Part shown: one piece after another, positions 2,052-58,910 of the stretch
Numbering within the stretch: the first letter of the stretch is position 1
Layout: each line of letters begins with the position of its first letter
Source: a virus
Strand: one strand, 5' to 3'
IMG/VR virus record: IMGVR_UViG_3300017694_000001
Span: 1 to 58,910 of that record
Length of the DNA stretch: 58,910 bases
Notes under the pieces: generated by a model
Told to the model about the DNA's origin: nothing
Database searches by the model: none
What the model saw: the letters and a program-made list of their open reading frames with translations, nothing else
Position numbers and translations under genes: made by a program

Positions 2052-4447
2052 TGGCTTACTATCCTATCTACCAACAGGCCTACGGCCTCTACGGCAACGC
2101 CCCGGCCTTGCCCGCCCTGGCCACCCCCGCCAACGCGCAGGCGACCGCCACCTCGTCTACGTCCCTGAGCGTGACCGCCAGCAGCGTAGCCAATGCAGCC
2201 GGCTACCAGCTCTACACCTCCGCTACCCAAACCGGCGCTTACGCCAAGCTGGGTGGGGTGCTTACTACTCCTTCTTACAGCCACACCGGACTATCGGCGG
2301 GGCAAACCCAGTGGTATAAGTGGGTAGCAGTAGGCGACGGGGTGAACTACCGCGATTCGGCGCAGACGGCGGCGTTTAGCGGCACGACAGCCAGCGGCAC
2401 AGCCCCCATCGCGCCTACTGTAAGCTTCGACTCAACCACCCGCACGCTTACGGCCACGCACAGCCTGGGCACGAATGAAATAGTCTACCAGCGCAATAAC
2501 GGCCCCGTGCAGCCCTACGCGCCAATCATGGTGGACAATAACGACCACCCGGTTGGGGAGTGGAAGTTCTTCACGCGAGCGGTTTCGGGCCGTCCCGCAG
2601 GAGCAGTGCAGCCTAGCCCCAAAATAGACCCGGCCGCCACTGGCCCGGTCGTCATCCCAGCCGACCGCACGGCCAAAATCGCGCTCTCCGACAACAGCTT
2701 TGACAAAGCTGGGGCCGCTATGCAGCGGGTAGTAGACCGGATTTTCTTCACCTTCAGCAACGGGGACCAAGGCGTTTCGCCGGGCCTGGGCAACATCTAC
2801 TACAACGGTGGCGGACCAGTTGGCAGCCCGACCGAGTTTGCCCGCATGTGGGTGCGCGACGCCTTTTTCTTCTTTCGCGCCTACCTCGACCACATCCCGG
2901 CTGCCATGCTTATTGCCTGGCAAGACCGCCTGCTAGCCGCTGCGCTCAATGGCCGCATTCCCGACCGTATTCGAGCAGATGGAGTGGTTGAGCGTACTCC
3001 ATTTTCGGGGGTGCTCAACTCCCCTTATGATAACAATTTTTTTACTATTCAGCAAGAGCTTCTTATCTTCCAAAAGACGGGCAGTATTGCGCACTTCATC
3101 AGCAAGCGCACGCAACTTGAGGCGGTATATGCCGCAATCCCTAAACAAAACGGACTGGTTCATATCCCTGCGCAAACGCTGGGACAGCCATTGACAGACC
3201 AGGACTTTGGGTTTCTTGACTCGGAAGCGCGGTCTGGCTTTCCTACGCACGGTATAGGCAACCAATATGGCTCGGCTATAGCGTTTGCAAAAATGACGTT
3301 GGCCGCAAGTGACAATGCCGCCGCGCAGACGTGGGTAGACGAAGCCGCCACCATTAAAGCCGCTTTCAACGACCCGGCTACGGGCCTGTGGGATGACGCC
3401 TATGGCATGTTCCGCTCCGCTACCGACTGGGGCAAAGAAGTGTGTGACCTTCCTGGTAACGCGCTAGCCGTGACCTGTGGCTTGGCAGACAATGACAAGG
3501 CGTTGCGCATCTCGCAAAAGATAGCGGACCGTATCACGGACTTCTTTCGCGGACAGGTGCCGCACGGGTTTGCTGACCGGCAAGCGTTGCCCGGCATTAG
3601 CCTGTGGCGCTTTTATATCGGCCCCAGCGTTACGTTTCAAGTAGTAGACGATAACGGCAATCGGGTGCCTTATCCCAACGGCCAGGGCTTCTACTCGGGA
3701 GCTGACGCCGCTACCAGCGCGCCTTATGGCGAGTACCAGAATTTTGGCAAGTGGTACACCTTCCTCGATGACATCCTGCCTACGCTCTCGCTCACCAACG
3801 CGACGGCGGCCAAGCAACTGCTCTACGACGCCGTGTATTCGGCCAACCTAGACCCGGCGCGGGATAACGTGGAGTGCTCTAGCCTGAACGGGGCGTTCCG
3901 CTGCAACCTCTATGCCGCCTCGGCCGCCGCTATCTACCGCCTCATCAAAGGGGGAGATACCGACCCGGCCGGCGTGACCCCTGACCCTGACTTTGCCTTT
4001 GAGGAAAATGAGTCGGGCGTTAATTCTGCCAGCAACTCGTCGGTTAGGCTGTGGATAAATGGCCCGAACTGGCAAGACACGACTTCACTGGACCCTAATT
4101 TTTCGGGCGGCTTAGGCAGTTATATCGCCAACGGCCTGACCGACATAAGGCGGCTGCCGAATGTGCGAATCCTCAGCCCCAAGTACATGCGCTTTGTCTG
4201 CCCGACCACGTCCTCGGCCGGCATCACACAAATGGCAATGGTTGCGCCTGGCGCTATGCCTGGCACGGCCGATTGGATTGACGTGGACCTGTATAGCGCT
4301 ACGCCGCAGCCATTCGCCGTGCGTGGCGTGAGTCCCGCCGCCTATGCCCCTGGCCTGTACGATATCTGCATTCGCCAAAACCCAGGCAACCCAGCTAACC
4401 GAAACCTGGGGCTGCACGACCGCATAGAGCTGGTCGATGTGCCCTAG
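2051..4447 (+). CDS. Tail-associated polysaccharide-degrading enzyme candidate (N-terminal Ig/FN3-like modules plus (alpha/alpha)6 glycoside-hydrolase-like domain)
   Basis: 798 aa with TAATG coupling to the fibre gene. N-terminal beta-rich modules (..GYQLYTSATQTGAYAKLG..WYKWVAVGDG..). Then MWVRDAFFFFRAY, resembling the W-x-RD motif of GH15/GH63/debranching-type barrels. Confidence 0.4.
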   Translation: MAYYPIYQQAYGLYGNAPALPALATPANAQATATSSTSLSVTASSVANAAGYQLYTSATQTGAYAKLGGVLTTPSYSHTGLSAGQTQWYKWVAVGDGVNYRDSAQTAAFSGTTASGTAPIAPTVSFDSTTRTLTATHSLGTNEIVYQRNNGPVQPYAPIMVDNNDHPVGEWKFFTRAVSGRPAGAVQPSPKIDPAATGPVVIPADRTAKIALSDNSFDKAGAAMQRVVDRIFFTFSNGDQGVSPGLGNIYYNGGGPVGSPTEFARMWVRDAFFFFRAYLDHIPAAMLIAWQDRLLAAALNGRIPDRIRADGVVERTPFSGVLNSPYDNNFFTIQQELLIFQKTGSIAHFISKRTQLEAVYAAIPKQNGLVHIPAQTLGQPLTDQDFGFLDSEARSGFPTHGIGNQYGSAIAFAKMTLAASDNAAAQTWVDEAATIKAAFNDPATGLWDDAYGMFRSATDWGKEVCDLPGNALAVTCGLADNDKALRISQKIADRITDFFRGQVPHGFADRQALPGISLWRFYIGPSVTFQVVDDNGNRVPYPNGQGFYSGADAATSAPYGEYQNFGKWYTFLDDILPTLSLTNATAAKQLLYDAVYSANLDPARDNVECSSLNGAFRCNLYAASAAAIYRLIKGGDTDPAGVTPDPDFAFEENESGVNSASNSSVRLWINGPNWQDTTSLDPNFSGGLGSYIANGLTDIRRLPNVRILSPKYMRFVCPTTSSAGITQMAMVAPGAMPGTADWIDVDLYSATPQPFAVRGVSPAAYAPGLYDICIRQNPGNPANRNLGLHDRIELVDVP

Positions 4448-6130: not shown

Positions 6131-6607
6131 ATGGCAACCGACACGCGCAACTGCCTCGCCCACTACGGCGACCCCTCCGCGCCAGCCTTCGCGGCGAAGT
6201 GGCTGGCAAAGCACCCTATCCCGGCCGCCGTGCTGCCCTACTTCCCGCTCTACGGCGGGACGGTACGGCCCACGGCTATCTACATGAACAAGTTCGCGAT
6301 GGCCGCGCTCGATGCCGTGCTGCTGGACTTGCTGGCTACCGGCCTGATTAAAGAGCTAAAGACCTACGACGGCTGCCATAATGTGCGGAAAAAGCGCGGC
6401 GTGAACGAGTACAGCATCCACAGCTGGGGGCTGGCCCTGGACTTCAACGCCGCCCTTAATCCGTTGGGGGTGAAATGGGGCAGCCGAAAAGGGATGTTCA
6501 GCAAAGCCTTTCTCGATACCTGGCGCAAGCACGGATGGACCTGCGGGGCCGACTTCCCAACGGGGGATGCAATGCACTTTCAATTCACCAACTCCTTTCC
6601 TAAATAA
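6131..6607 (+). CDS. Endolysin, zinc peptidase M15 family (VanY / L-Ala-D-Glu peptidase-like)
   Basis: 158 aa. Metal-ligand motifs SIHSWGLALDFN (H-x6-D) and DAMHFQF (His). Position is within the lysis cassette. Confidence 0.85.
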   Translation: MATDTRNCLAHYGDPSAPAFAAKWLAKHPIPAAVLPYFPLYGGTVRPTAIYMNKFAMAALDAVLLDLLATGLIKELKTYDGCHNVRKKRGVNEYSIHSWGLALDFNAALNPLGVKWGSRKGMFSKAFLDTWRKHGWTCGADFPTGDAMHFQFTNSFPK

Positions 6608-10307: not shown

Positions 10308-10585
10308 TCAGCAATAGGGGCTTCTATTACTTGGCGCTTAAGCGAAAAGTCTATCTGCTCATCTGTATTATACTCCGCATCAATCTGCGCCCGGAGCAGA
10401 TTAAGCGCCTCTTCGTGCTTAAACTCCACCAAGAATTTTGCGCCCTCTACTAAATCGCGATAAACGGCATCTTCGCTATTGCCCTGTACCACAACCCCAC
10501 GCATCTCTTTGATGCAGCCAACGAGCACGCCGGGCGTATCGCCTTTGAAAATAAGGCCGGTTAGTTTTAAAATGGGCTCAGTCAT
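10304..10585 (-). CDS. HicB-like / UPF0150-family (antitoxin-fold) protein
   Basis: 93 aa. ..LTGLIFKGDTPGVLVGCIKEMRGVVVQGNSEDAVYRDLVEGAKFLVEF.. matches the beta-beta-beta-alpha pattern of HicB N-terminal domains (..G.y.a..pdlpG....G.t.eEa..n..eA..l.le). Confidence 0.5.
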   Translation of the reverse strand: MTEPILKLTGLIFKGDTPGVLVGCIKEMRGVVVQGNSEDAVYRDLVEGAKFLVEFKHEEALNLLRAQIDAEYNTDEQIDFSLKRQVIEAPIAE

Positions 10586-10659
10586 GGCGCGGGCAGGTTG
10601 GGGATGCGAGTATAGCCACTAAACGCCAATCCGGCCCGACTTGTTGAACGCCACCCAGC

Positions 10660-10692
10660 AAAAAGCCCCGCACCTGATAAGGGCGCGGGGCT
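10660..10692 (-). terminator. Rho-independent terminator of the 10814..11155 gene
   Basis: AGCCCCGC (10664..10671) pairs with GCGGGGCT (10685..10692). On the minus strand the hairpin is followed by TTTTT. Confidence 0.7.
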
Positions 10693-10813
10693 TACAAATT
10701 TGAATGAGGTGGCCTTGGCTTCGTTAAAAGTAACGTTTGCAACCGTCGCCGCCTCATTCAGCTTGTTTGCCCTCCCCCGGTTGGAGTGGGCGAATTTATT
10801 GATTTTGAACCTA

Positions 10814-11155
10814 CTAATGGTTCGACCATCTTAAAAAGGTGCCATCCTGATTAAACAAGGCTGCGCTATTATCCAAACCGATAATAGGTCCGTCCTTTTC
10901 ATCGGCAGCATAAACTTCATAAGGCAGCCCTTCTGCTGCAAAGAAGGCCACCATTCGAGTAAATGCAGTGCTATCGGCTGGGGTGGCTTCGGCGCGAGCG
11001 CCTTCTACATAGCCATCGGCGTAAGCTACTTTTTCTTTTTCAGAAAAAGGGGCAAATCCACCTTTCGCCAGTTGCTCATTCACGGCAACGCTAGCGGCTC
11101 GGGCGCGTTCCCGAATTGGGTTGATATTCAGCGCAGGGGGTGAATCAGTAGTCAT
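10814..11155 (-). CDS. Hypothetical protein
   Basis: 113-aa track ORF with ATG start and its own terminator. Confidence 0.55.
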   Translation of the reverse strand: MTTDSPPALNINPIRERARAASVAVNEQLAKGGFAPFSEKEKVAYADGYVEGARAEATPADSTAFTRMVAFFAAEGLPYEVYAADEKDGPIIGLDNSAALFNQDGTFLRWSNH

Positions 11156-11279
11156 AAATCAGTGAAAGGCATTTGGCGGGCCAGTTTCCCAGCCCTTTAT
11201 GTCTAGAATTTTATCTCGATAAACGAGGCCAAATCTCGGTGCCACTCCCCCAGTTAGAGCGGGCGATGAGCAAAGCGAC

Positions 11280-11388
11280 TGCCGGGGGCGGGATTCGAAC
11301 CCACGACCTCTTGCCTTCCATCGGGTGCCGAAACAGTGACCGAGGCTCGCTACTAGCAAGCGGCTCTAACCAGCTGAGCTACCCCGAA
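11280..11388 (-). tRNA. tRNA-like element (109 nt, Thr-like anticodon loop CUAGUAG) with a ~40-nt insertion. Probable attP core / tRNA 3' half.
   Basis: Reverse complement reads UUCGGGG-UA-GCUC-AGCUGGUUA-GAGC-C-GCUUG-CUAGUAG-CGAGC-[40 nt]-GUGGG-UUCGAAU-CCCGC-CCCCGGC-A. D and T arms are canonical. Acceptor pair 1:72 is mismatched. No CCA is encoded. Lies next to int. Confidence 0.45.
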
Positions 11389-11542
11389 CAGTCGCTTTTA
11401 TCGGTGCCCTTCTTCTCTTTTAGAGGAAGGGGCAAAAGCAGTGCTAAACGTGATTGCAACGTTGACCTCCCCGGCCATACTGCCCGGCAATGCCGTCAGG
11501 TAGGGGGCGCTCTCTCATAGCTGAGCTATAGCACTAAAAATG

Positions 11543-11646
11543 TGAGTGAGGGGTCCGGCTTCCTACCGACACAACCCGCTGCCACCTTCGCGGAGTGAAC
11601 AGCCGGCGTGGCTCGGGCCTTCGCTCAGGCGCGCTTCCCTCACTCA
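11543..11646. ncRNA. Candidate structured RNA/DNA element (three nested helices), strand unresolved
   Basis: TGAGTGAGGG (11543..11552) pairs with CCCTCACTCA (11637..11646). This encloses CCGGCT (11555..11560)/AGCCGG (11601..11606), which encloses CCGC (11576..11579)/GCGG (11590..11593). Located in an ORF-poor region. Confidence 0.3.
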
Positions 11647-12030
11647 ACTCGTCTCCGCTTCCCTTCTATTAAGGGGAGTGGTCAATATTGTGAGAACAGG
11701 TGCTTTCTGAGTTGTCAACCTCACTGGCATCTACGCATGGCCATAAGTTGCTTTGTGCTTGACGGGCACCTCGACAACCAACCCACACTTTAAAGAGCAA
11801 AAGCGTTATCGGGTAATTACTCCTAGACGCCTTCGCCCTGTGATTAGCACCGCGCCACGGGAGCGCTTAGAGCTGTTCTCTTTTGCGAATTTACGAAGGA
11901 AACACCAATATGTTACTATCTAGCCATAAAATATTTATCGTACTTTACGCCACCGCCTCCCCTGTCGGCACCACCACGGCTAAAGAGAAGTAGTAGGCGA
12001 GTGTCGTATAAGGGAAGTCGTAGTAGTCGC

Positions 12031-12219
12031 TCATAGCTCAAGCGGAAATGTCTTTGGCAGCTCACTCGTCAGCCAGTGCGGCATCCGCTCGCAGCCTTCC
12101 GCTAGCTGGAGCCACTGCGTTAAAATGGCGTGAGCTTCTTTGCGGCGGCCGGGCCAGGCGGCGGGGTTGGCGGCTAGTAGCAGGTCGGCGAAGGTTTCAG
12201 GGGGTGGCGTGTTTTGCAT
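12031..12219 (-). CDS. Small hypothetical protein downstream of int (62 aa)
   Basis: Internal ATG (12219) of track ORF 12031..12429, beginning 8 nt after the int stop. The upstream part of the track ORF overlaps int and was discarded. Confidence 0.35.
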   Translation of the reverse strand: MQNTPPPETFADLLLAANPAAWPGRRKEAHAILTQWLQLAEGCERMPHWLTSELPKTFPLEL

Positions 12220-12227
12220 GGTGGGGG

Positions 12228-13478
12228 CTAACCGTAGGCGTTTGCTGCGCCTGCGTCCAGTTCTGAGGTGTCGAGGCCGGCGATGTAAAGCGCCGTTGTG
12301 CTGATATTCTTGTGCCCCAAAAGTTGCTGAGGTACGCGTAAGTCCTTGTCGTTTTTTAGATAGGACTGTAGCGCCAGGGTATGCCGGGCTAAGTGCGATT
12401 TCAGGCGGGGCCAGCCCAGCTTCGCGCAAATGCCCTTTAGGGCCATGCCCACGCTATTTTCTGTTTTTCGCAGAATCTTGTGGCGCTGGTCGTCGTCAAC
12501 CAAAAGGTAGTTGGCGGGTAGAAACGGTAATACAAAAGTGCTGCTGTGCCCTTCGCGCCGGGTTAGTATTTCGCGTATTTCTGGCCTTAGTGCCATATCC
12601 ATTGCAACCGGATACTTGTGCGTAGTAAAGCGCACCCGGCCTTGCTCATAGTCTATGTGTGCCCACCGCAATTCCAGGATTACCCCGATTCTGGAGCCAT
12701 GCAGGTAGTATTGCAGCAGAAAGGCATCGCGGGCGGCCGCTTGCACCCGCGGCAAGCGCAGCGCGAGCAACTGCGCTTGCCAGTCGGCGGGCAATACCGT
12801 GCTTTTCGTGGGCGCAGGCGTGCCAAGCAGTCGCGTGAGCTTGGAAAATACCAGCGGGTGGTTTGGCGCGGCGGCGGCGAGCAACCCGGCAAAGACGCCT
12901 ACGTGGTGGCGCTTTGAGCTAACCGCCCCCTTTTGCTGGCCCGCCCACTGCACGAGCGAAGTCGCTACCTCGCGGGTAAGCTCAGGCAGTGTAAGCGTGT
13001 CGAGAAGAGGCCATTTACTAAAAAAGCTCAGCATAGCGTGGGCATTTTGACGGGACGAGGCTTTTGAACTGTACAGGGGGATGGCGGCGCGCAATAAATC
13101 AAGCAGCCGTTGCGGGGCAGGGACTGGTTCTTTCTTCTTAGGTCGTAGTGCCAGGGCAACATCAGCTGGCATGACAGGCGGCAAGCCGGGGTCTTCATCG
13201 CAAGCATCTTGCAGGCGGTCGGCTTTTAGCTCTGCCTTGCCTTGCAGTTTTTTGAGCTTCTTGTTATAGGCGCGTGAGGCCTCGTCATTGCCCCGCAATC
13301 GGCCCTTCGCGGCGTTCCATTCGTCCGGCCGGCAGCGGATACCCGTGGCGTATTCTGACCGGGTATCGGTATCGAGAAAGATGCGCAGGTACACCGGGGC
13401 CGTGCCAGCCTTGTTGAGCTTCGACTTGCGAAGCCACAGCAAGAATTGCATAGGCGAATCCGTGTAGGTGCGACCCAT
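12228..13478 (-). CDS. int: Tyrosine recombinase / phage integrase (Bacteroidota type)
   Basis: N-terminal arm-binding-like segment (FLLWLRKSKLNKAGTAPVYLRIFLDT..EYATGIRCRPDEWN). C-terminus has ..HLARHT..LLGHKNISTTALYIAG.. (R..H-x-x-R..H..Y catalytic pattern). The track ORF starts at TTG 13523; ATG 13478 or 13451 is more likely. Confidence 0.9.
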   Translation of the reverse strand: MGRTYTDSPMQFLLWLRKSKLNKAGTAPVYLRIFLDTDTRSEYATGIRCRPDEWNAAKGRLRGNDEASRAYNKKLKKLQGKAELKADRLQDACDEDPGLPPVMPADVALALRPKKKEPVPAPQRLLDLLRAAIPLYSSKASSRQNAHAMLSFFSKWPLLDTLTLPELTREVATSLVQWAGQQKGAVSSKRHHVGVFAGLLAAAAPNHPLVFSKLTRLLGTPAPTKSTVLPADWQAQLLALRLPRVQAAARDAFLLQYYLHGSRIGVILELRWAHIDYEQGRVRFTTHKYPVAMDMALRPEIREILTRREGHSSTFVLPFLPANYLLVDDDQRHKILRKTENSVGMALKGICAKLGWPRLKSHLARHTLALQSYLKNDKDLRVPQQLLGHKNISTTALYIAGLDTSELDAGAANAYG

Positions 13479-13876: not shown

Positions 13877-14449
13877 TTACAACGGTCGAGCAGCCCCGTT
13901 CATCTTCACCCGGCGCGATACCGATAAGGCAAAGCCAATCGGGTTGCGCGGAGTGGGAGTAGGTTCGGGGCCGGCTGCATCAAGACCGTTGAAGGGCTTT
14001 CCCAATTCGCGGTTCAATCGGGCTATCTCTACGCGTTGCTGTTCAATCAAGATGTCCTTATCAGCTAAGCGGGCGCGGTTGATGGCTATCTCTACAGTAG
14101 TGCCGTAGTCGCTGGGCACTGCGCTGATTACTGGCACTGCCGCCGCTTCTGGCTTCTCTGTGTCTTTGGAGGTGGCCGGCGTGGTAGGCTCAGATGGAGT
14201 TACGCCGATGGTGCGCCGGCCAGTCAGTAACCAGATAGCATCAAAGTCCCGGTAGGTGTCTGCAAGGGCGGTCATTGTATCGCCGCCCGGCAAAAACTTG
14301 CCCTGTAAGATGTAACTGATTTTTTGCGGGGTCAGGCCCGCCCGGATGGCAAACTGTCGCTGGTTAAGCTCGCCTGAATCCTTGATAAATTGAGCGAGGC
14401 GGGCAGCCACCTCGGGGTACTTAGGGGGCTCTTCGGTTTTCTGTTCCAT
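13877..14449 (-). CDS. CI-like repressor (Phage_CI_repr-type HTH)
   Basis: ..LNQRQFAIRAGLTPQKISYILQGKFLPGGDTMTALADTYRDFDAIWLLTGRR.. matches the HTH..WLLtG signature. ATG at 14449 is preferred over the TTG at 14488. Divergent from the early operon. Confidence 0.8.
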   Translation of the reverse strand: MEQKTEEPPKYPEVAARLAQFIKDSGELNQRQFAIRAGLTPQKISYILQGKFLPGGDTMTALADTYRDFDAIWLLTGRRTIGVTPSEPTTPATSKDTEKPEAAAVPVISAVPSDYGTTVEIAINRARLADKDILIEQQRVEIARLNRELGKPFNGLDAAGPEPTPTPRNPIGFALSVSRRVKMNGAARPL

Positions 14450-14475
14450 AGGGCAAAGATTGGGTATCACATTAC

Positions 14476-14489
14476 TTTGAAATATCAAA
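14476..14489. promoter_or_regulatory. Operator candidate O1 (TTTGAAATATCAAA)
   Basis: TTTGA-N4-TCAAA inverted repeat in the cI/cro intergenic region. On the minus strand it reads TTTGATATTTCAAA. Confidence 0.55.
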
Positions 14490-14498
14490 CTAATGTGC

Positions 14499-14506
14499 TA
14501 TATTTG
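14499..14506 (+). promoter_or_regulatory. Rightward -7 box TATATTTG (Bacteroidota TAnnTTTG consensus)
   Basis: Perfect match to TAnnTTTG, 84 nt upstream of the ATG at 14590. Confidence 0.45.
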
Positions 14507-14528
14507 TCGTAAACATCTAGCGCAACAG

Positions 14529-14542
14529 TTTGATATAGCTGG
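14529..14542. promoter_or_regulatory. Operator candidate O2 (TTTGATATAGCTGG, half-site conserved)
   Basis: Shares TTTGATAT with O1 and O3. The right half is degenerate. Confidence 0.4.
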
Positions 14543-14554
14543 CTATTTGTACGA

Positions 14555-14562
14555 CAAAAGTA
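14555..14562 (-). promoter_or_regulatory. Leftward -7 box TACTTTTG (TAnnTTTG) for the repressor gene
   Basis: Perfect consensus on the minus strand. It lies to the right of the rightward box, so the two promoters face each other. Confidence 0.4.
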
Positions 14563-14570
14563 CACACACG

Positions 14571-14584
14571 TTTGATACTTCAAA
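14571..14584. promoter_or_regulatory. Operator candidate O3 (TTTGATACTTCAAA)
   Basis: TTTGA-N4-TCAAA inverted repeat just upstream of the ATG at 14590. Confidence 0.55.
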
Positions 14585-14589
14585 GCAAT

Positions 14590-14877
14590 ATGATGGAAAA
14601 TCAAAAGAAACGCGGCCCGCGTAGAACGGAAAGAGCGGCCTCTTTTCACGCGAAAGTTGCTGAAATCAAGCACTTACTTCCGCGACAGTACAGCGAGTTA
14701 GCCACGCAAATAATTTCTGGCTTGGATGCCTCATTAGTGAGATATGCTGTTGCAGGGCGTCGGGAGTACTGGGAAGCCCTGCCTGCACTGCGTATTGTGG
14801 CTGGTATCGACCCGCTGCCGAAGGGTATCACGCTAAAGCCGGTGGGCCGCGCCGTCAAGCAGTCTGTGGGCGCATGA
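14590..14877 (+). CDS. First early-operon gene (cro-position protein), function unknown
   Basis: 95 aa from the ATG at 14590 (the track ORF begins at TTG 14572, inside operator O3). Basic N-terminus. ATGA coupling to the methylase gene. Confidence 0.55.
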   Translation: MMENQKKRGPRRTERAASFHAKVAEIKHLLPRQYSELATQIISGLDASLVRYAVAGRREYWEALPALRIVAGIDPLPKGITLKPVGRAVKQSVGA

Positions 14878-24486: not shown

Positions 24487-24653
24487 ATAGCAATGAGCGA
24501 AAGCCCCTGGCAGGGCGGAACGCTAGGATTACCCGGCTGCCCACTACCAGCCGTTGCACCGACATAATGGGGTATGCCAGTGCCCTTTATCGGAGCCGCC
24601 TTAGTTTCTGCTGTAGTGGGCAGAGACGGGCGGCTTCATCATTTCACCCCATC

Positions 24654-25853
24654 ATGCCCAAGTTTCTCTGTTCTTCGTCCGCGCTGCTTCGTCAGCTAAA
24701 GCAAGTGGCTCACGTTGTGCGCCGCAATCCCGTAGTGCCCGTGCTGGCAAATGTGCTGCTGGCGGCCACTGGTAACGAGCTGCGTATTATCGGCTCAGAC
24801 CTTGAAACCACCGTGGCCGTGAGCCTGCCCATTGAGGGCGGCAACGGCGAAACGTGGGGTATATGCCCGCCTCTCAAGCCGCTGCTTGACGTGCTAGGCA
24901 ACCTGCCCGACCAACCGATAACGGTAGAGCTAGGCCCGAAAGAAAATCAACTCACCGTGCGGGCCGTGGCCTATGCCTCCGATGAGGAACAGGGCGGCGC
25001 AACTGGCGGGGCAAGCTACACTTTCGGCTGTGAGCTTTACGGCGACTACCCGAAAACGCCCACCGTGCGCGACGAGGTGCAGCTAGTAATTCCCGGCCAC
25101 CTGCTACGTACTGCTATCGGCTATGCCAGTGACCTAACGGCTACTGACCAGTTTCGCCCTGCTATGATGTGCGTTCACGTCATAGCCGACGCAAGAGGGG
25201 TGCAATTTCAAGCTACGGACGGGCACCGGGCCGTGCAATTTGATGTGCAGGCAGCTAAAGAGCCTGGCTACTCTTTCACTGGCGCACAGGCCAAGAAGCT
25301 GCTGCTGCCAAAGCAGTCTATTGCTACCCTTAAAGCCCTGGTTAAGAGCGAAGATGTAGTAACGGTAACTGCACAGGCTGGCTGGGGGCACGCCCGTATT
25401 CAGATTGGGGCGTGGGGGCCGGAAGTAACGGTGCGGCTGGTTGATGAGCGGTTCCCCGACTTGGCGGCAGTTATCCCGACCGAGTTCCCTGGCGGCATCT
25501 TAACGCTGAGCCGCCCATCGGCGCAAGCCATGCTGCGCCGCCTCAAGCCGTTCGTGAGCTTTCTTACTCCGAAGGTGCATCTGTGCTTTTCGGGCACGGG
25601 CGGGCAGGCAAAGGCATTTGATGAGGGCGAAGATATTGAGGCCCGCGAGCCGCTGCCTGGCACGTTCGCGGCAGGCGACCTGAAAGAAATTGCCTTCAAT
25701 ATCAACCTCATGTCGCAAGTGCTGAGCCTGCTGCCCGGCCCTCGGCTGCGGATGCACTTCACAGGCGAGAACAAAGCTGCAGTGCTGACTTCGGACGGTT
25801 ACGAAGGGCTGCGCTACCTACTCATGCCCGTGACTATCCGCCAGTATGCCTAG
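24654..25853 (+). CDS. dnaN: DNA polymerase III beta subunit (sliding clamp) homologue
   Basis: 399 aa from the ATG at 24654. MPKFLCSSSALLRQLKQVAHVVRRNPVVPVLANVLLAATGNELRIIGSDLETTVAV.. is the typical clamp N-terminus. Length fits three clamp domains. Confidence 0.8.
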   Translation: MPKFLCSSSALLRQLKQVAHVVRRNPVVPVLANVLLAATGNELRIIGSDLETTVAVSLPIEGGNGETWGICPPLKPLLDVLGNLPDQPITVELGPKENQLTVRAVAYASDEEQGGATGGASYTFGCELYGDYPKTPTVRDEVQLVIPGHLLRTAIGYASDLTATDQFRPAMMCVHVIADARGVQFQATDGHRAVQFDVQAAKEPGYSFTGAQAKKLLLPKQSIATLKALVKSEDVVTVTAQAGWGHARIQIGAWGPEVTVRLVDERFPDLAAVIPTEFPGGILTLSRPSAQAMLRRLKPFVSFLTPKVHLCFSGTGGQAKAFDEGEDIEAREPLPGTFAAGDLKEIAFNINLMSQVLSLLPGPRLRMHFTGENKAAVLTSDGYEGLRYLLMPVTIRQYA

Positions 25854-26875: not shown

Positions 26876-27352
26876 ATGCTAACCCTCGAAGAAATACTTG
26901 CCCTGCCCGCTGGGCGTGAATTAGATGTGGCTATTGCCGAGCACGTGCTCGGCCACGTCTGGCTACATAATAAGCGATACGGCTTCCTTCGTGATGAGGA
27001 AGACGCTGACGACATCGTAGAGGACAGTAGCGCCAACTATGGCAAGCACCCCAACCACGAGGGCGGCGCGTGGATTGCCCCCGATGAAAAATATTCTACC
27101 GATATAGCCGCTGCCTGGGGCCTAGTAAACTGCTTGGAAGTGGGTGGCTGGGGCCACAAGCACCAAGTATTCAGCGCCGCTGCCGAGTGCCCTGGCTGGC
27201 AGTGGACATTCATGCGGCCGGGCGGCGGGCTAGGCGCGTGTATTGCTGGGGCTGAAGGTGAAACTGCCCCGCTAGCTATCTGCCGCGCCGCCCTACTCGC
27301 CACTTTGTCGGCACCCCTACCTACTAAGAGAGAGGAAGCCGGCCATGAGTAG
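26876..27352 (+). CDS. Phage ABA-sandwich-domain-like protein
   Basis: 158 aa. ..LPAGRELDVAIAEHVLGH.. and ..KYSTDIAAAWGLVNCL.. resemble the conserved blocks of that phage family (from memory). Confidence 0.45.
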   Translation: MLTLEEILALPAGRELDVAIAEHVLGHVWLHNKRYGFLRDEEDADDIVEDSSANYGKHPNHEGGAWIAPDEKYSTDIAAAWGLVNCLEVGGWGHKHQVFSAAAECPGWQWTFMRPGGGLGACIAGAEGETAPLAICRAALLATLSAPLPTKREEAGHE

Positions 27353-27989
27353 CGAAAAGCCAATTTTAGCTATTAGTGAGGTAGCCAGCCCCGTGCGTCG
27401 CCGCCAGTACTTGGTGCCCGTCGTGGTGTTAAAGCCTGTGGCCGAGCGCAAAAACAAGCTCAATGGCTGGTTTGCAGACTTTGACACCGTGCCAGTTTTA
27501 GGCCCGGCCCACGGCGACCCCGAAATAAGTTGGGCCGCCGCTCAGCAGCACTACCATGTCGATTGGCGCTTCATGTCAGCCGCTTCTCGCCAAGCTGTCC
27601 GGCGGGAAGGCGATGGGCCTGGCCACGAAAAAGGCATTGTAGTTTGGGCAGCCGACGTAGTGCGCTTTGAATTGCAGCCGGTCGTTTACCGTGGCCCGGC
27701 ATCCGAGTGGGAAGGGCAAACCCCAAGGCAATTGCGCACCATTCTCGAGCCGCTGCATGTCGCCTCTGTGGTGGGTGAAACGAAGCGGTGCCCACACCGG
27801 GGCGCGGACTTAACGCACTGCAAGCCCGACGGAAACGGCGTGGTTACGTGCCCTGTACATGGGCTGCGCTGGCAGGTAGCTACCGGGCAGTTAGTGCCCA
27901 CCACACCTGCCGCGCAAGCACTAATTGAAGTACTCGAACGCGCCCCGGCCCCCACCCCTAGCGAGAGAGGAAACAGCCAGCCCGGCTAG
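27345..27989 (+). CDS. Rieske [2Fe-2S] domain protein
   Basis: 214 aa. CPHRGADLTHCKPDGNGVVTCPVHG contains the C-x-H ... C-x2-H Rieske ligand motif. Confidence 0.7.
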   Translation: MSSEKPILAISEVASPVRRRQYLVPVVVLKPVAERKNKLNGWFADFDTVPVLGPAHGDPEISWAAAQQHYHVDWRFMSAASRQAVRREGDGPGHEKGIVVWAADVVRFELQPVVYRGPASEWEGQTPRQLRTILEPLHVASVVGETKRCPHRGADLTHCKPDGNGVVTCPVHGLRWQVATGQLVPTTPAAQALIEVLERAPAPTPSERGNSQPG

Positions 27990-28973: not shown

Positions 28974-29598
28974 CAAGAGCGCCTTTCTGGAAAAGCATCT
29001 TGAAGATGTTCTGTGGACTAACCCCGATGCCTGCTATGAGTCGGGGCTATGCTGCTTTGAGCCTCGTGCGTTTGGCAAGTACGTGCAGCGAATGCGGCAA
29101 CCTAGCCTATACCCTTATGGCATTGCCGATATTATTCAGATAGTACACGCTGATTCATGTCCTGACGTATTGGTGCAGGTAATCGAGTGCAAGCGCGACG
29201 TTATCGGCCTGGCAGCATACGCGCAGGCCAAGCGCTACCTAGCGGCCCTCAAATGCGCCCTTCAAGACCTGGTAGATATCACAGAGATTCGCGGAGGCCG
29301 GGTGCAATGGGAGTGCATCCTGATAGGCAAGCGCCTTGAAATGAACAGCGATTTCGTGTATGTACTCAACGAAGACAAGGCGTGTAAGGTCTACACTTAT
29401 GAAGAAGCTAATCAGGCTGTATCCTTCACAAAGTCCGGCCGCCGCTGGCATAAGCCCGCGGAAGCCAATAGCACAGACCTGGCGAAGGTAGCGGCCAGGG
29501 TTCAAGGCTATATAGGCTATGTAAGTGCTCAGCTTGAGGCCGACGAAGAGCTGTTTGCCCGTATGGAAGCTGCAAAAGAAAGGGGGCTAGTTGAATGA
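28966..29598 (+). CDS. PD-(D/E)xK-type nuclease candidate
   Basis: 210 aa with GTG start. ..GIADIIQIV..(17 aa)..VQVIECKRD.. fits the D...(D/E)-x-K motif. Confidence 0.5.
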   Translation: MSSKSAFLEKHLEDVLWTNPDACYESGLCCFEPRAFGKYVQRMRQPSLYPYGIADIIQIVHADSCPDVLVQVIECKRDVIGLAAYAQAKRYLAALKCALQDLVDITEIRGGRVQWECILIGKRLEMNSDFVYVLNEDKACKVYTYEEANQAVSFTKSGRRWHKPAEANSTDLAKVAARVQGYIGYVSAQLEADEELFARMEAAKERGLVE

Positions 29599-30683
29599 AG
29601 CCTGCCCTGCCCATCCGCAAGCGCCTGTCTGCGCTCACCTGCATCAAGGCTGGCCCTAAAGCCGTGCTCATTGAGGTATGCGAGTTGCACGAGAACGGCG
29701 GGCGCGGGTGCTTTGCCAGTAACGGCGCGCTCAGCAAGAAGCTGGGCGTGTCGGTGGCTACCGTGACGCGCACCGTAGCCTCGCTGACCTCTTGGGGGCT
29801 GCTGGCGACGCGCATAGTACCCGCCGAGGCCAACCGCCGCTACCTATGCCCTACGGCTGCTGTGCGAGCCTGCTATGCAGCTGCCAACGAAGCTCAGCAA
29901 CTGGCCGCCGTAGCGGAATTGACTATAGTCAAAAGTAGCCCCGAAACAGAATTGACTATAGTCGAAAACGAGACTGACTATAGTCAAAACGGTGAACTGA
30001 CTATAGTCAAAAATGGAGTTGACTATAGTCAAAACGCCTCGCGCGTAATAGGAGAAGACCAAAAGAAGACCATTCTAGAAGCCCAATTACAAAGCCTGCG
30101 TGAAGGGCTGGCTGAGGCAGAAGACGAATTGACTGCTGCGCAAAAAAAAATAGTGGAGCTGGAAGCTGAAAATGCCAGGCTTCGCGCACTAGGGGCGGCG
30201 GGCACAATGACTAGTCATCAGGGTGGGCGCTGGGGCTACGACCCGGCCGAGATACACCCGGCCCTGGTGCTGCCCTTCGATACACCGGACTTCCGCGAAG
30301 CCTGGATAGCCTACCGCACTTTCCGCGAACAGCAAAAGCATCCGCAGTTCACCGGCGGAATGCAGGAGCAGGCAGCCCTACAGCACTTAGGCAACCTAGC
30401 CGGAGGCAGCGAGGCCGAGGCGCTGGAAATTATCAAGTACAACATCAGAGGAGGGTGGAAAGACCTCTACAAACCCGATGCAAAACGCACTTCAACCCAG
30501 CAGTCAGCCCCAGGGCAGTCAGGCGGTGGCCAGAAGCCAACACTCAATGCCGTTGCAATGGCTGGCACCCTTGCTAGCCGGCGATTCCAGCAGCCAGGAG
30601 GTAGCGCTGGCGATACTGGACAAACAACGGGGACTCACCCCGGCCAGGGCACAGGAGGCACCCCAGGTTTCGACGCTCACTAG
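29595..30683 (+). CDS. Replication initiator (winged-HTH, lambda O-like organisation with internal origin)
   Basis: 362 aa. N-terminal wHTH (..GALSKKLGVSVATVTRTVASLTSWGLL..). Five iterons lie inside the gene. Confidence 0.65.
   Translation: MKPALPIRKRLSALTCIKAGPKAVLIEVCELHENGGRGCFASNGALSKKLGVSVATVTRTVASLTSWGLLATRIVPAEANRRYLCPTAAVRACYAAANEAQQLAAVAELTIVKSSPETELTIVENETDYSQNGELTIVKNGVDYSQNASRVIGEDQKKTILEAQLQSLREGLAEAEDELTAAQKKIVELEAENARLRALGAAGTMTSHQGGRWGYDPAEIHPALVLPFDTPDFREAWIAYRTFREQQKHPQFTGGMQEQAALQHLGNLAGGSEAEALEIIKYNIRGGWKDLYKPDAKRTSTQQSAPGQSGGGQKPTLNAVAMAGTLASRRFQQPGGSAGDTGQTTGTHPGQGTGGTPGFDAH
29931..30030. repeat. Origin iterons: 5 x (T/C)TGACTATAGTC(A/G)AAA with 22-23-bp spacing
   Basis: The 10-bp palindrome GACTATAGTC occurs at 29931, 29954, 29976, 29999 and 30021. 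It is read in two frames (ELTIVK / TDYSQN), so it is constrained at the DNA level. Confidence 0.85.
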
Positions 30684-58700: not shown

Positions 58701-58910
58701 GCCGACTTCCCGCGCCACTACGCCGATGGCCCGGCCGACCCGGATGCGAACGTATTCGCGCCGGCTTACGCACAGCTGACTTTTCAGAATGCGGGCAATC
58801 GCAGCTACGGGATAAATCTCTACCAATCGCGGCTCACCAGTCTTACCACTCCTACCCCCTCTCCTATCCGCATGATTACCACGGTATCTGCGCCGCAGCC
58901 ACCCGCTTCT
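55770..58910 (+). CDS. Large tail/receptor-binding protein, N-terminal part (no stop in window; continues at base 124 via the overlap)
   Basis: Hand translation from the ATG at 55770 is open to the window end. It is not in the ORF track because it lacks a stop. It is in frame with 1..570. Confidence 0.7.
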   Translation, partial: MSTTPTAFAAFPDRPEAGVESAAVVRGNAIVRSLYSIKPKSGDEPIVWPDQLDDNGNLVADTAGLEIIRELNNIEPSWAGTINNTSTARTGAKVQNNSHNITDMLRLDNYVWRVFGYGEGEESNIDKAHVDRLNEHIQIHKQDTFGAYRLATDGQDIWVSGVKIDYNDQRKADIFRCFVLVIRPSATDTGDLDVQVPGSVAIPSGTEGITYYALALLDSPEVLSPGQPGHIPWNKAEVISDHAVNSQFLVVLRAGLNRAEVWRKTTNELVATHELSDPHTLAFTSDSTLTITTGTTVGTYSLGDDGSLQMLDITPPAGLTEPVKVRVSPDGSKLLVTDGNRLNDTRSTATHRFYLFDVATGQQLWARGRQEDYGVDARVYDDKYCLINTKEFTSPSADTTAFASFHDDKHVWLADIGNGRYQLVNIETGEVVTVVSWEGYHYALGLVANDVVNGKGKLLVNYKQWEVDLDLIAAQDITPGNGAYRLTHNYSLCWRAEYDDKYNRLAMPTKKASSGRTFAFQQHQRPADPTAPVDFHLVLVEKTDLRVIYYTDRKFPIGTVLEPDFSLTTYESVKDGEVVGRGELGAVLTRYTQPAIEDDADGLPQWGPRQEVWRTLPLLVSDPISAGVVPTRSSRSENGRYITYNIDVSYNGQPGGTGARGTGNHGGIIEEGGSDFLSQFLPSTKRDYYEGNLPVDKFEDSNGVRVGGSYSYAIGSTFFLGANNEFWKGKATFDWKYYSDLGLMRGEWVRANRADNPFGPAPGGYATNSTRGDFVQHGNVVLHFSTGEGGGGGPIVMRYRGFDTIRFERLPLVEYTPPVDASTDPLADLPKYAPVEDGEAGLVIAPADSPGLQLSTGRLETDGTDLLADFDGSLPSGTVRIPLNVPTGPWEHSLVLRFTRNAFPQQPGELANVEYYDENDRLISTTGRREITNENCPLLHNGEVVGTRSTEAWRPYGYNPSPAKFGVGDDGRPYVEYADFPRHYADGPADPDANVFAPAYAQLTFQNAGNRSYGINLYQSRLTSLTTPTPSPIRMITTVSAPQPPAS
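58788..58910. repeat. Terminal direct overlap, copy 2 (identical to 1..123)
   Basis: Same comparison as for copy 1. Confidence 0.95.

Follow-up and report, generated by a model that had tools for sequence, protein, structure and literature searches.

Known tRNA-shaped RNAs and the present locus

Transfer RNA (tRNA) bodies punctuate or scaffold other RNAs in MALAT1-mascRNA, in the tRNA-microRNA chimeras of murine gammaherpesvirus 68 and in engineered tRNA scaffolds, where the cargo sits in the anticodon stem. In these examples the tRNA body serves as a handle for processing and stability. Here we describe E1, a 109-nt tRNA-like element at 11280..11388 on the minus strand of a temperate phage genome (IMG/VR record IMGVR_UViG_3300017694_000001; the window, as used below, is the whole stretch of 58,910 nt that was analysed). 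E1 is most likely neither a tRNA gene nor a proven integration site. The interpretation that we favour, if tentatively, takes E1 as a structural module, derived from tRNA but non-decoding, in a non-coding RNA cassette encoded by the phage. The cargo position of the engineered scaffolds is that of the insert in E1; the ends of the punctuated and scaffolded examples are free or accessible to RNase P or RNase Z, whereas E1 is sealed and stands in a bacterial phage context.

Transfer-messenger RNA (tmRNA) resembles E1 in that its acceptor/T-arm domain carries foreign RNA where the anticodon region would be, and a tmRNA occupies the same slot in one related phage (L127; loci of related phages carry L numbers). 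Unlike tmRNA, E1 has a full D arm and an anticodon stem and lacks a reading frame, pseudoknots and a free 3' end. Neither Rfam (RF00023) nor ARAGORN finds a tmRNA anywhere in the window, and the acceptor of E1 has C3-G70, not G3:U70.

YrlA, a bacterial Y RNA, is a non-decoding mimic of the D arm, T arm and acceptor of tRNA. Some YrlA RNAs are phage-encoded, the one of M. smegmatis is cut by RNase P, and YrlA typically has a GNCGAA motif and a Ro60 (TROVE) gene nearby, at most about 4 kb away on the same strand (Chen et al. 2014, PMC4201824). YrlA is a precedent for tRNA-shaped modules as protein-recruiting domains, but its topology is opposite to that of E1: the acceptor-like stem is capped and the ends exit on the anticodon side as the Ro60-binding stem, whereas the ends of E1 lie at the acceptor side. 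E1 has no GNCGAA motif context, and there is no TROVE protein among the 59 open reading frames (ORFs) of the window searched with Pfam. tmRNA, YrlA-type mimics and tRNA scaffolds are the closest known things, and by the defining features of each family E1 belongs to none of them.

Two further systems are relevant to the setting of E1. DUF3800-VIII (RF03075) is an orphan structured RNA of unknown function; DUF3800-associated motifs are often followed by terminators, and UAA-containing loops are common in them, as their authors remarked (Weinberg et al. 2017, PMC5737381). This RNA is part of similarly placed cassettes in four related phages. E1 is dissimilar to the motif, which has no match in 10500..12800 of the window at E<=10, and our literature search found no function described for it. 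In tRNA-dependent lysogeny, the phage also carries a whole tRNA (Guerrero-Bustamante & Hatfull 2024, PMC10865867); such a complementing tRNA must decode, which E1 cannot. As in systems whose phage attachment site (attP) targets a tRNA gene, the phage of the window is temperate and has DNA resembling a tRNA gene near its int, which encodes a tyrosine integrase. Unlike an attP core, however, E1 is a whole, sealed, insert-bearing body and not a 3' fragment, and no matching host tRNA was found.

A tRNA body with sealed ends

The Rfam tRNA model (RF00005) matches 11280..11388 of the minus strand over the full model (1-71) with 35.0 bits against a gathering score of 29. The E-value is 0.0012 for the whole window searched with all 4227 families, and 4.8e-05 for a 2.3-kb slice. 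These coordinates are identical to those given in an initial annotation of the window, and the D arm (GCUC-AGCUGGUUA-GAGC) and T arm (GUGGG-UUCGAAU-CCCGC) quoted there are in the sequence. All elbow nucleotides are present (U8, A14, G15:C48, G18G19, A21, G46, G53, U54 U55 C56, A58, C61). E1 is therefore like a canonical tRNA in its cloverleaf, its elbow contacts, its 5-nt variable loop with G46, its T loop UUCGAAU and its score above the gathering threshold.

It differs from a canonical tRNA at several points. About 40 extra nucleotides lie between the anticodon arm and the variable/T region, as the annotation had stated, and the Rfam alignment puts them into the anticodon loop as a 40-nt insertion. 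There is an additional nucleotide at position 26, and the acceptor helix has the annotated 1:72 mismatch (U1.C72), which can also be drawn as a bulge. The leader and trailer are paired over 10 bp, an NCCA end is not free and an open 7-nt anticodon loop is missing. No isotype can be assigned to the parent tRNA; in BLAST searches of annotated phages the 3' half is about equally like Ile, Pro, Met and Val tRNAs (E >= 0.02). With 35 bits in Rfam, an intact elbow and an insertion of about 40 nt, the description of E1 as a genuine, chimeric-looking tRNA-like element and not a normal tRNA holds. The same is true of two finer points: the end of the insertion, GCAAG-AGGUC, can pair with CUUGC, which is the pairing used in the Rfam alignment, and in that alignment 11280..11314 is a clean stand-alone tRNA 3' half.

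The outward continuation of the acceptor helix had escaped the annotation. AAAGCGACUG (11398..11389) pairs perfectly over 10 bp with CAGUCGCUUU (11281..11272, that is C72 and the nine following bases). Together with the acceptor, this leader-trailer pairing forms a continuous 16-bp helix in which U1 (11388) is a single bulge. Because the discriminator A73 is paired within this helix, E1 has no free 3' end.

The anticodon region can be folded in two registers. In register A, that of Rfam, CUUGC/GCAAG encloses 40 nt at -50.6 kcal/mol. In register B, that of the annotation, 11361..11345 form the hairpin GCUUGCU-AGU-AGCGAGC, which is followed by a second hairpin to give a five-way junction; its energy of -56.2 kcal/mol makes it 5.6 kcal/mol more stable than register A. 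The sequence read in the annotation as a well-formed anticodon arm, GCUUG-CUAGUAG-CGAGC, is present, but its loop CUAGUAG is self-complementary, with Watson-Crick pairs C32:G38 and U33:A37, and so zips up to a 7-bp stem with an AGU triloop. An open 7-nt anticodon loop exists in neither register. These observations support E1 as genuine tRNA-derived sequence in which the body is intact, the ends are sealed and the anticodon loop has been replaced. E1 further has its place in an ordered cassette that a terminator bounds and that is matched in architecture by cassettes of related phages.

Decoding and intron readings

Three properties of a functional tRNA are lacking in E1, namely an open 7-nt anticodon loop, a single-stranded 3' end and a gene call by a gene finder in default mode. 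The ARAGORN and Rfam checks were divided: Rfam gave the tRNA match, but no tmRNA match, and ARAGORN in default mode called 0 genes, hence no tRNA gene at E1. With introns allowed, ARAGORN arrives at a forced tRNA-Ser(GGA) model, whose 34-nt intron follows directly on the first nucleotide of the loop, a non-canonical position. This model is biologically implausible because Ser needs a class II variable arm and the body of E1 is class I. The Thr(AGU) anticodon of the annotation is not tenable either, as the loop is self-complementary and the register requires a 40-nt "variable region".

Group I introns have a catalytic core of more than 200 nt, and archaeal-type bulge-helix-bulge introns usually lie at 37/38. 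A phage tRNA gene that works after removal of a short intron or insertion, either as Ser(GGA) or as Thr(AGU) with a giant variable arm, would fit the intact tRNA body and the last 7 nt of the insert, AUGGAAG, which make a canonical loop with U33 and A37. Such a gene is nevertheless very improbable. Its insert of 34-40 nt is far below group I size, no intron or ribozyme family of Rfam matches 10500..12800 at E<=10, and inspection of the predicted folds shows no bulge-helix-bulge (3-nt bulges, 4 bp between) at the insert junctions. The 3' end is moreover buried in the 16-bp helix beside the 1:72 mismatch or bulge, pairs 32:38 and 33:37 close the AGU loop, and the Ser model would lack its class II variable arm. 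With sealed ends, no open loop and no intron signature, the functional tRNA with an insertion or intron that the annotation had offered as an alternative is not borne out.

One parallel for such inserts was found in a distant, lower-GC phage, L141, which has two other high-scoring tRNA bodies (52 and 43 bits in Rfam) with anticodon-loop insertions of 57 nt and about 36 nt. They lie in a 1-kb gene-free region, about 350 nt apart, with gene-free sequence and a terminator between them. Our literature search returned no description of short anticodon-loop insertions or introns in phage tRNA-like genes.

The cassette around E1

E1 is part of a cassette of about 1.2 kb (11893..10660, minus strand) between the integrase gene and the end of the late genes. 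It is gene-poor except for one orphan ORF and consists of stem-closed modules and recurring linker hairpins (TTTGCC-hairpin-GGCACCGA), with a terminator at the end (Table 1). The annotation had placed E1 next to the integrase; the region is indeed integrase-proximal, but the integrase gene ends about 840 nt upstream of E1. The word GGCACCGA occurs in 8 copies in the window against 2.35 expected, and two of these flank E1. Each of the 12 linker copies gives a hairpin on folding (z from -0.5 to -3.7).

Table 1. Features of the window and of related loci, with the numbers giving the order along the cassette
Feature	Locus	Position	Strand	Basis or remark
E1, tRNA-like body (acceptor 2-7:66-71, D arm, anticodon-stem equivalent, about 40 inserted nt, 5-nt variable loop AGGUC, T arm)	window	11280..11388	minus	Rfam tRNA match
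40-nt insertion of E1 (Rfam register)	window	11315..11354	minus	
1, near-consensus Bacteroidota -7 box TAAATTCG	window	11893..11886	minus	sequence
2, module M1, closed by GCAAAAG/CUUUUGC	window	to 11797	minus	fold
3, stretch with no identified module or motif	window	about 11796..11687	minus	
4, linker hairpin a, degenerate: TTGACC, hairpin with loop UUAAUAG, GGAGACGA	window	11686..11651	minus	
5, module M3, four-way junction, 10-bp closing stem UGAGUGAGGG/CCCUCACUCA	window	11646..11543	minus	fold, motif scan
6, E2, cloverleaf-shaped module	window	11535..11438	minus	by eye
7, linker hairpin b: TTTGCC, hairpin with loop CUAAAAG, GGCACCGA	window	11436..11401	minus	motif common to L001
8, E1 with sealing helix	window	11398..11272	minus	inverted repeat I2; helix retained in both constrained and unconstrained folds
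9, linker hairpin c: TTTGC, hairpin, GGCACCGA	window	11275..11236	minus	
10, ORF113, orphan gene inside the cassette	window	11155..10814	minus	no Pfam match
11, second -7 box TAAATTCG	window	10798..10791	minus	
12, hairpin CCCACUCC-AACC-GGGGGAGGG	window	10790..10770	minus	
13, module UGAAUGAGG...CCUCAUUCA	window	10760..10701	minus	
14, intrinsic terminator GCCCCGC...GCGGGGC-UUUUU, 13-nt loop	window	10691..10660	minus	
Tyrosine integrase, 416 aa	window	12228..13478	minus, co-oriented with cassette	Arm-DNA-bind_5 and Phage_integrase domains (Pfam); Bacteroidota-type arm-binding domain
HTH repressor	window	13877-14488	minus	Pfam
Lysis peptidase	window	6131-6607		Pfam
DUF3800-VIII	L122	3889-3954	minus	Rfam
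DUF3800-VIII	L126	8300-8365	minus	Rfam
DUF3800-VIII	L130	2349-2414	plus	Rfam
DUF3800-VIII	L131	1345-1411	minus	Rfam
DUF3800-VIII	L161	2169-2237	minus	Rfam
Full-length tmRNA	L127	3887-4227	minus	Rfam 93 bits, E = 4e-35
tRNA match, 52 bits	L141 (IMGVR_UViG_3300032007_002192)	2401-2524	minus	Rfam
tRNA match, 43 bits	L141 (IMGVR_UViG_3300032007_002192)	2923-3029	minus	Rfam

The module that precedes E1, E2, has an acceptor-like stem AGUGCUA/UAGCACU, a D arm GCUC..GAGC, a T-like arm AACGU-UGCAAUC-ACGUU and about 22-30 inserted nt. E2 and E1 share UAGCUCAGCU and GAGGUC in a weak alignment (z = 2.3), and ARAGORN finds E2 only at a 90% threshold with introns allowed. E2 is weakly tRNA-like, and M3 is cloverleaf-shaped and nothing more; M3 was tried as a third tRNA-like element and dropped at noise level (ARAGORN only at -ps70). 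The closing stem of M3 is a variant of the GAAUGAGG/CCUCAUUC stem found in related phages. The terminal mini-cassette at 10660..10798 has a BLAST match to the end of the L001 cassette, and its linker is closely like those of L001-2 and L130.

A scan for sigma-70 promoters and terminators returned counts at chance level and overlooked the terminator at 10660..10691. Folding energy was uninformative for strand assignment. The loop word CUAGUAG, common to the E1 hairpin and to linker hairpins in L122 and L125, was rejected as a family signature, CTAGTAG being over-represented genome-wide.

Cassettes in related phages

The relatives are the contigs of integrase homologs, found by protein search and alignment, and comprise 20+ loci. 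A gene-free cassette occupies the same slot in eight phages (the window, L001, L122, L125, L126, L130, L131 and L161); L123 and L124 are without it. The shared plan runs from a -7 box to a module closed by a purine-rich stem, a linker, a hairpin, GGCAC(C)GA or CACGAAA, further modules and an intrinsic terminator. The -7 box is TATATTTG in L001, L122, L125 and L131, TATATTTA in L126 and TATATTCG in L161. Closing stems in the relatives are purine-rich, for example GAAUGAGG, GAAAGCGG and GAAAGGCG, and the linkers are ACCCCAUCACC or UUUGCC. The cassette may have either orientation relative to int.

The integrases of L130 and L001 are only about 32% identical, yet their linkers are 82% identical over 45 nt. 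A near-identical linker beside such divergent integrases speaks against an integrase arm site in the linker motif and in favour of a cassette that can be exchanged as a unit. Between the hairpins of L001-2 and L130 there are U.G-compatible substitutions, with an identical 3' strand, and the closing stem shows a compensatory change from GAAUGAGG/CCUCAUUC to GAGUGAGG/CCUCACUC. Compensatory or U.G-compatible changes are few across the cassettes, and the alignment is too shallow for covariation statistics.

Known structured RNAs occur in several of these loci. DUF3800-VIII is found at 47-53 bits in the cassettes of L122, L126, L130 and L131, and below threshold, at 29.7 bits, in L161. It usually lies directly before the terminator and adjoins the module closed by GAAUGAGG. 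In L127 (Hymenobacter sp. metagenome-assembled genome (MAG) GCA_028288345.1, contig JAQBNW010000330.1), the full-length tmRNA takes the cassette slot behind a TATATTTA box and has phage genes on both sides. It is not called by ARAGORN and its tag region looks atypical; it is possibly a phage-borne tmRNA variant.

Pattern searches extended the set little. One linker DNA pattern returned known contigs only, the other gave one true match and eight chance matches in coding sequence, and a DUF3800-VIII core pattern found only the L130 contig in metagenomes. The "T-arm" and "D-arm" pieces seen in L001, L125, L126 and L131 are by-eye observations only.

Attachment site, recombination relic or decaying gene

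The window carries an exact 123-bp terminal direct repeat (1-123 = 58788-58910), which marks it as a complete phage genome, circularly closed or terminally redundant, with a length of about 58.8 kb. Hence any att site in it is an attP. The annotation had proposed that the 3' half of E1 is an attP core that matches a host tRNA. Exact scans returned 0 matches for a 35-mer of this half in 185,579 species genomes (one genome each), 0 for a 27-mer in IMG/VR and 0 for a 30-mer in 241 M JGI metagenome records. A 22-mer of the T loop and acceptor is generic: it matches at least 120 loci, and the matches listed fall in tRNAs for Leu and Met from unrelated phyla (Actinomycetota, methanogens, Gemmatimonadota and others), none of them Bacteroidota. 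L001, which has the closest integrase (80% identical to that of the window), is without the E1 sequence and shares only the linker motif and terminator. No host tRNA gene with this 3' half was found in three large collections. On this half of the refuting condition named in the annotation, the proposal finds no support for cores of at least about 22 bp in sequenced hosts; a core of about 10-20 bp or an unsequenced host may still apply.

The main and serious rival to a non-coding RNA module, though on balance somewhat unlikely, is a recombination relic. E1, and perhaps E2, would be pieces of host or phage tRNA genes that were brought near attP by integrase-mediated or illegitimate recombination (imprecise excision, secondary-site events). 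In that case the RNA itself would be functionless and the insertion a scar of the junction, and this DNA may contain a short att core. tRNA and tmRNA genes are the usual targets of integrases of this type, and the integrase of the window has an arm-binding domain; a relative carries tmRNA in the same slot. E1 lies where attP or "morons" are classically found, between the late-gene end and int, it contains the clean tRNA 3' half, and it is a singleton with no conserved homolog. The element NBU1 has a 14-bp core. Short cores of about 10 bp are also known from tRNA-dependent lysogeny (PMC10865867).

Recombination at a tRNA gene accounts less well for the preserved body. A scar is not expected to spare all elbow nucleotides and confine the damage to the anticodon loop, nor to gain a perfect 10-bp leader-trailer extension. 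The missing tRNA gene in the three collections and the lack of the E1 sequence beside the 80%-identical integrase of L001 are further points against it. The two GGCACCGA copies that flank E1 lie 165 bp apart, as arm-type sites would, but this linker goes with the cassette and not with the integrase, as the divergent integrase of L130 shows, and in L001 both motif copies are on one side of the tRNA-like module. Two isolate-genome proviruses (L129 and L132) are cut at int, which is their terminal gene with its 5' end outward. These ends are weak hints that att may lie upstream of int; the placement of attP upstream of int from contig breakpoints was rejected, as the breakpoints are inconsistent.

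A decaying pseudogene of a former phage tRNA that received a random insertion and now awaits deletion, without function, would also leave a singleton of unremarkable fold energy, and its neighbour E2 resembles a more degraded copy. We consider this improbable. Decay would scatter substitutions, yet four stems and all tertiary-contact nucleotides have survived; in the perfect 10-bp leader-trailer helix, structure has been gained and not lost; and E1 lies within an ordered array with repeated linkers.

Proposed role and significance

We infer that E1 is expressed as RNA and acts as a non-decoding tRNA-shaped module. Transcription would start at a promoter within the cassette or, in lysogens, reach the cassette by read-through from int. 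The E1 RNA would then fold to a tRNA-shaped body that is incapable of aminoacylation or decoding, and in which host factors with an affinity for the shape of tRNA would meet an elbow and an acceptor-T stack. In the mechanism that we prefer, E1 would be a processing and stability module that punctuates a polycistronic RNA. RNase P-type cleavage might take place at the helix irregularity at +1, which is where RNase P would cut, and the sealed ends would shield the RNA against exonucleases. As a second option, E1 may be a sponge or decoy for proteins that bind the tRNA body, such as defence nucleases or modification enzymes. The tRNA decoy mentioned in the annotation is close to our best reading in that it treats E1 as a non-canonical RNA, but as a mechanism the decoy or sponge takes second place.

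Several results weigh against this interpretation. The weak point of E1 as a presumed tRNA-like non-coding RNA is the lack of homologs: none was found in a phage collection (1.2-kb query), in species genomes (35-mer), IMG/VR (27-mer) and metagenomes (30-mer) or in the 20+ integrase-relative loci. Without a homolog there is no covariation evidence for a selected E1 fold, and constraint at the RNA level is unproven. The fold energies of E1 and E2 are not better than those of shuffled sequences (z = +0.6 and +0.9), and E2 has no Rfam match even at E<=10 in a 236-nt slice. The -7 boxes of the window are near-matches only, with no exact TAnnTTTG at 11893..11886, and for the linker hairpins the folding of the antisense strand equals or surpasses that of the sense strand. 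CTAGTAG is not diagnostic, with 12 sites in the window against 4.8 expected (0/100 shuffles reached 12). No candidate partner protein of the DUF3800, Ro60/TROVE, RtcB or nuclease type was detected by Pfam among the 59 ORFs. The comparison across phages has its own weak side: the window cassette has no significant BLAST similarity to the others except for its terminal part with L001, and only DUF3800-VIII and short linkers can be aligned between cassettes. The "family" consequently rests on position, architecture and short motifs. There is also no tRNA match in the other cassettes, even at E<=10.

A wider and rather speculative proposal, which we regard as clearly unlikely, is that the window and its relatives define an undescribed class of phage polycistronic "tRNA-mimic" RNA cassettes. 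In each, an independently transcribed array would combine anticodon-arm-like hairpins with stem-sealed modules of tRNA or cloverleaf shape; to this array some lineages would add DUF3800-VIII, and others would have tmRNA in its place. In lysogens or early in infection, such a cassette would serve as a sponge for host factors that bind tRNA (for example tRNA-targeting defence nucleases) or as a self-processing scaffold for small effector RNAs. If true, this class would place DUF3800-VIII in a genomic context for the first time and suggest a role for it that can be tested.

Should E1 prove to be an expressed RNA, it would represent a natural tRNA body used as a sealed scaffold with cargo at the anticodon position. 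Engineered RNAs have this design, Y RNAs and tmRNA have it in a different topology, and it has not been described for temperate Bacteroidota phages. It would also link insert-bearing phage tRNA-like genes, DUF3800-VIII and phage-borne tmRNA to one exchangeable "RNA slot" beside the integrase. If E1 is a relic instead, then Rfam-positive tRNA matches beside integrases need checks of the loop, the ends and the host match before they are annotated as tRNA or att.

Phage genome and gene setting

The phage is temperate and of Hymenobacter type, and the sole named relative of its integrase comes from a Hymenobacter MAG. A 1.2-kb query of the phage collection gave no match among deposited phage genomes. 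Pfam identifies terminase, portal, MuF, prohead protease, capsid, connector and tape measure genes on the plus strand from about 37.9 to 55 kb. The cassette region abuts the end of the late and lysis genes at the terminator at about 10.66 kb.

Between int and this terminator, the 113-codon orphan ORF113 is the sole convincing gene on the minus strand. A search of 5.8 billion proteins returned only a self-match. Its GC content at third codon positions is 0.42, against 0.66-0.74 in the integrase and portal genes, and the values at first and second positions are protein-like. ORF113 is probably a foreign "moron" gene that was recently acquired.

Some other features of the genome were recorded. 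A phage-encoded DNA polymerase III beta sliding clamp with all three domains lies at 24567-25853, and a Rieske [2Fe-2S] domain protein at 27345-27989. The palindrome TGACTATAGTCA(AAA) is present in five close-set copies (29908-30034) within the 5' part of an HTH_36 protein gene (29595-30683); these look like replication-origin iterons within an initiator gene. A 22-nt word, CTACGGGAGTTGTAGCGCGGTT, occurs four times on the plus strand (37295, 42208, 51716 and 55130), at or just before the starts of late ORFs (37321, 42189, 51787 and 55150), and is a possible promoter or leader motif of the late genes.

In the window as a whole, the Bacteroidota -7 box TAnnTTTG is rarer than expected (12 observed, 23 expected). 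Between the repressor gene and the first early genes, 14466-14594 contain nested inverted repeats of the ATATCAAACTAATGTG type that are 81-82% complementary. Exact TAnnTTTG boxes at 14499(+) and 14555(-) adjoin these repeats, and the region looks like an immunity-switch operator with divergent promoters.

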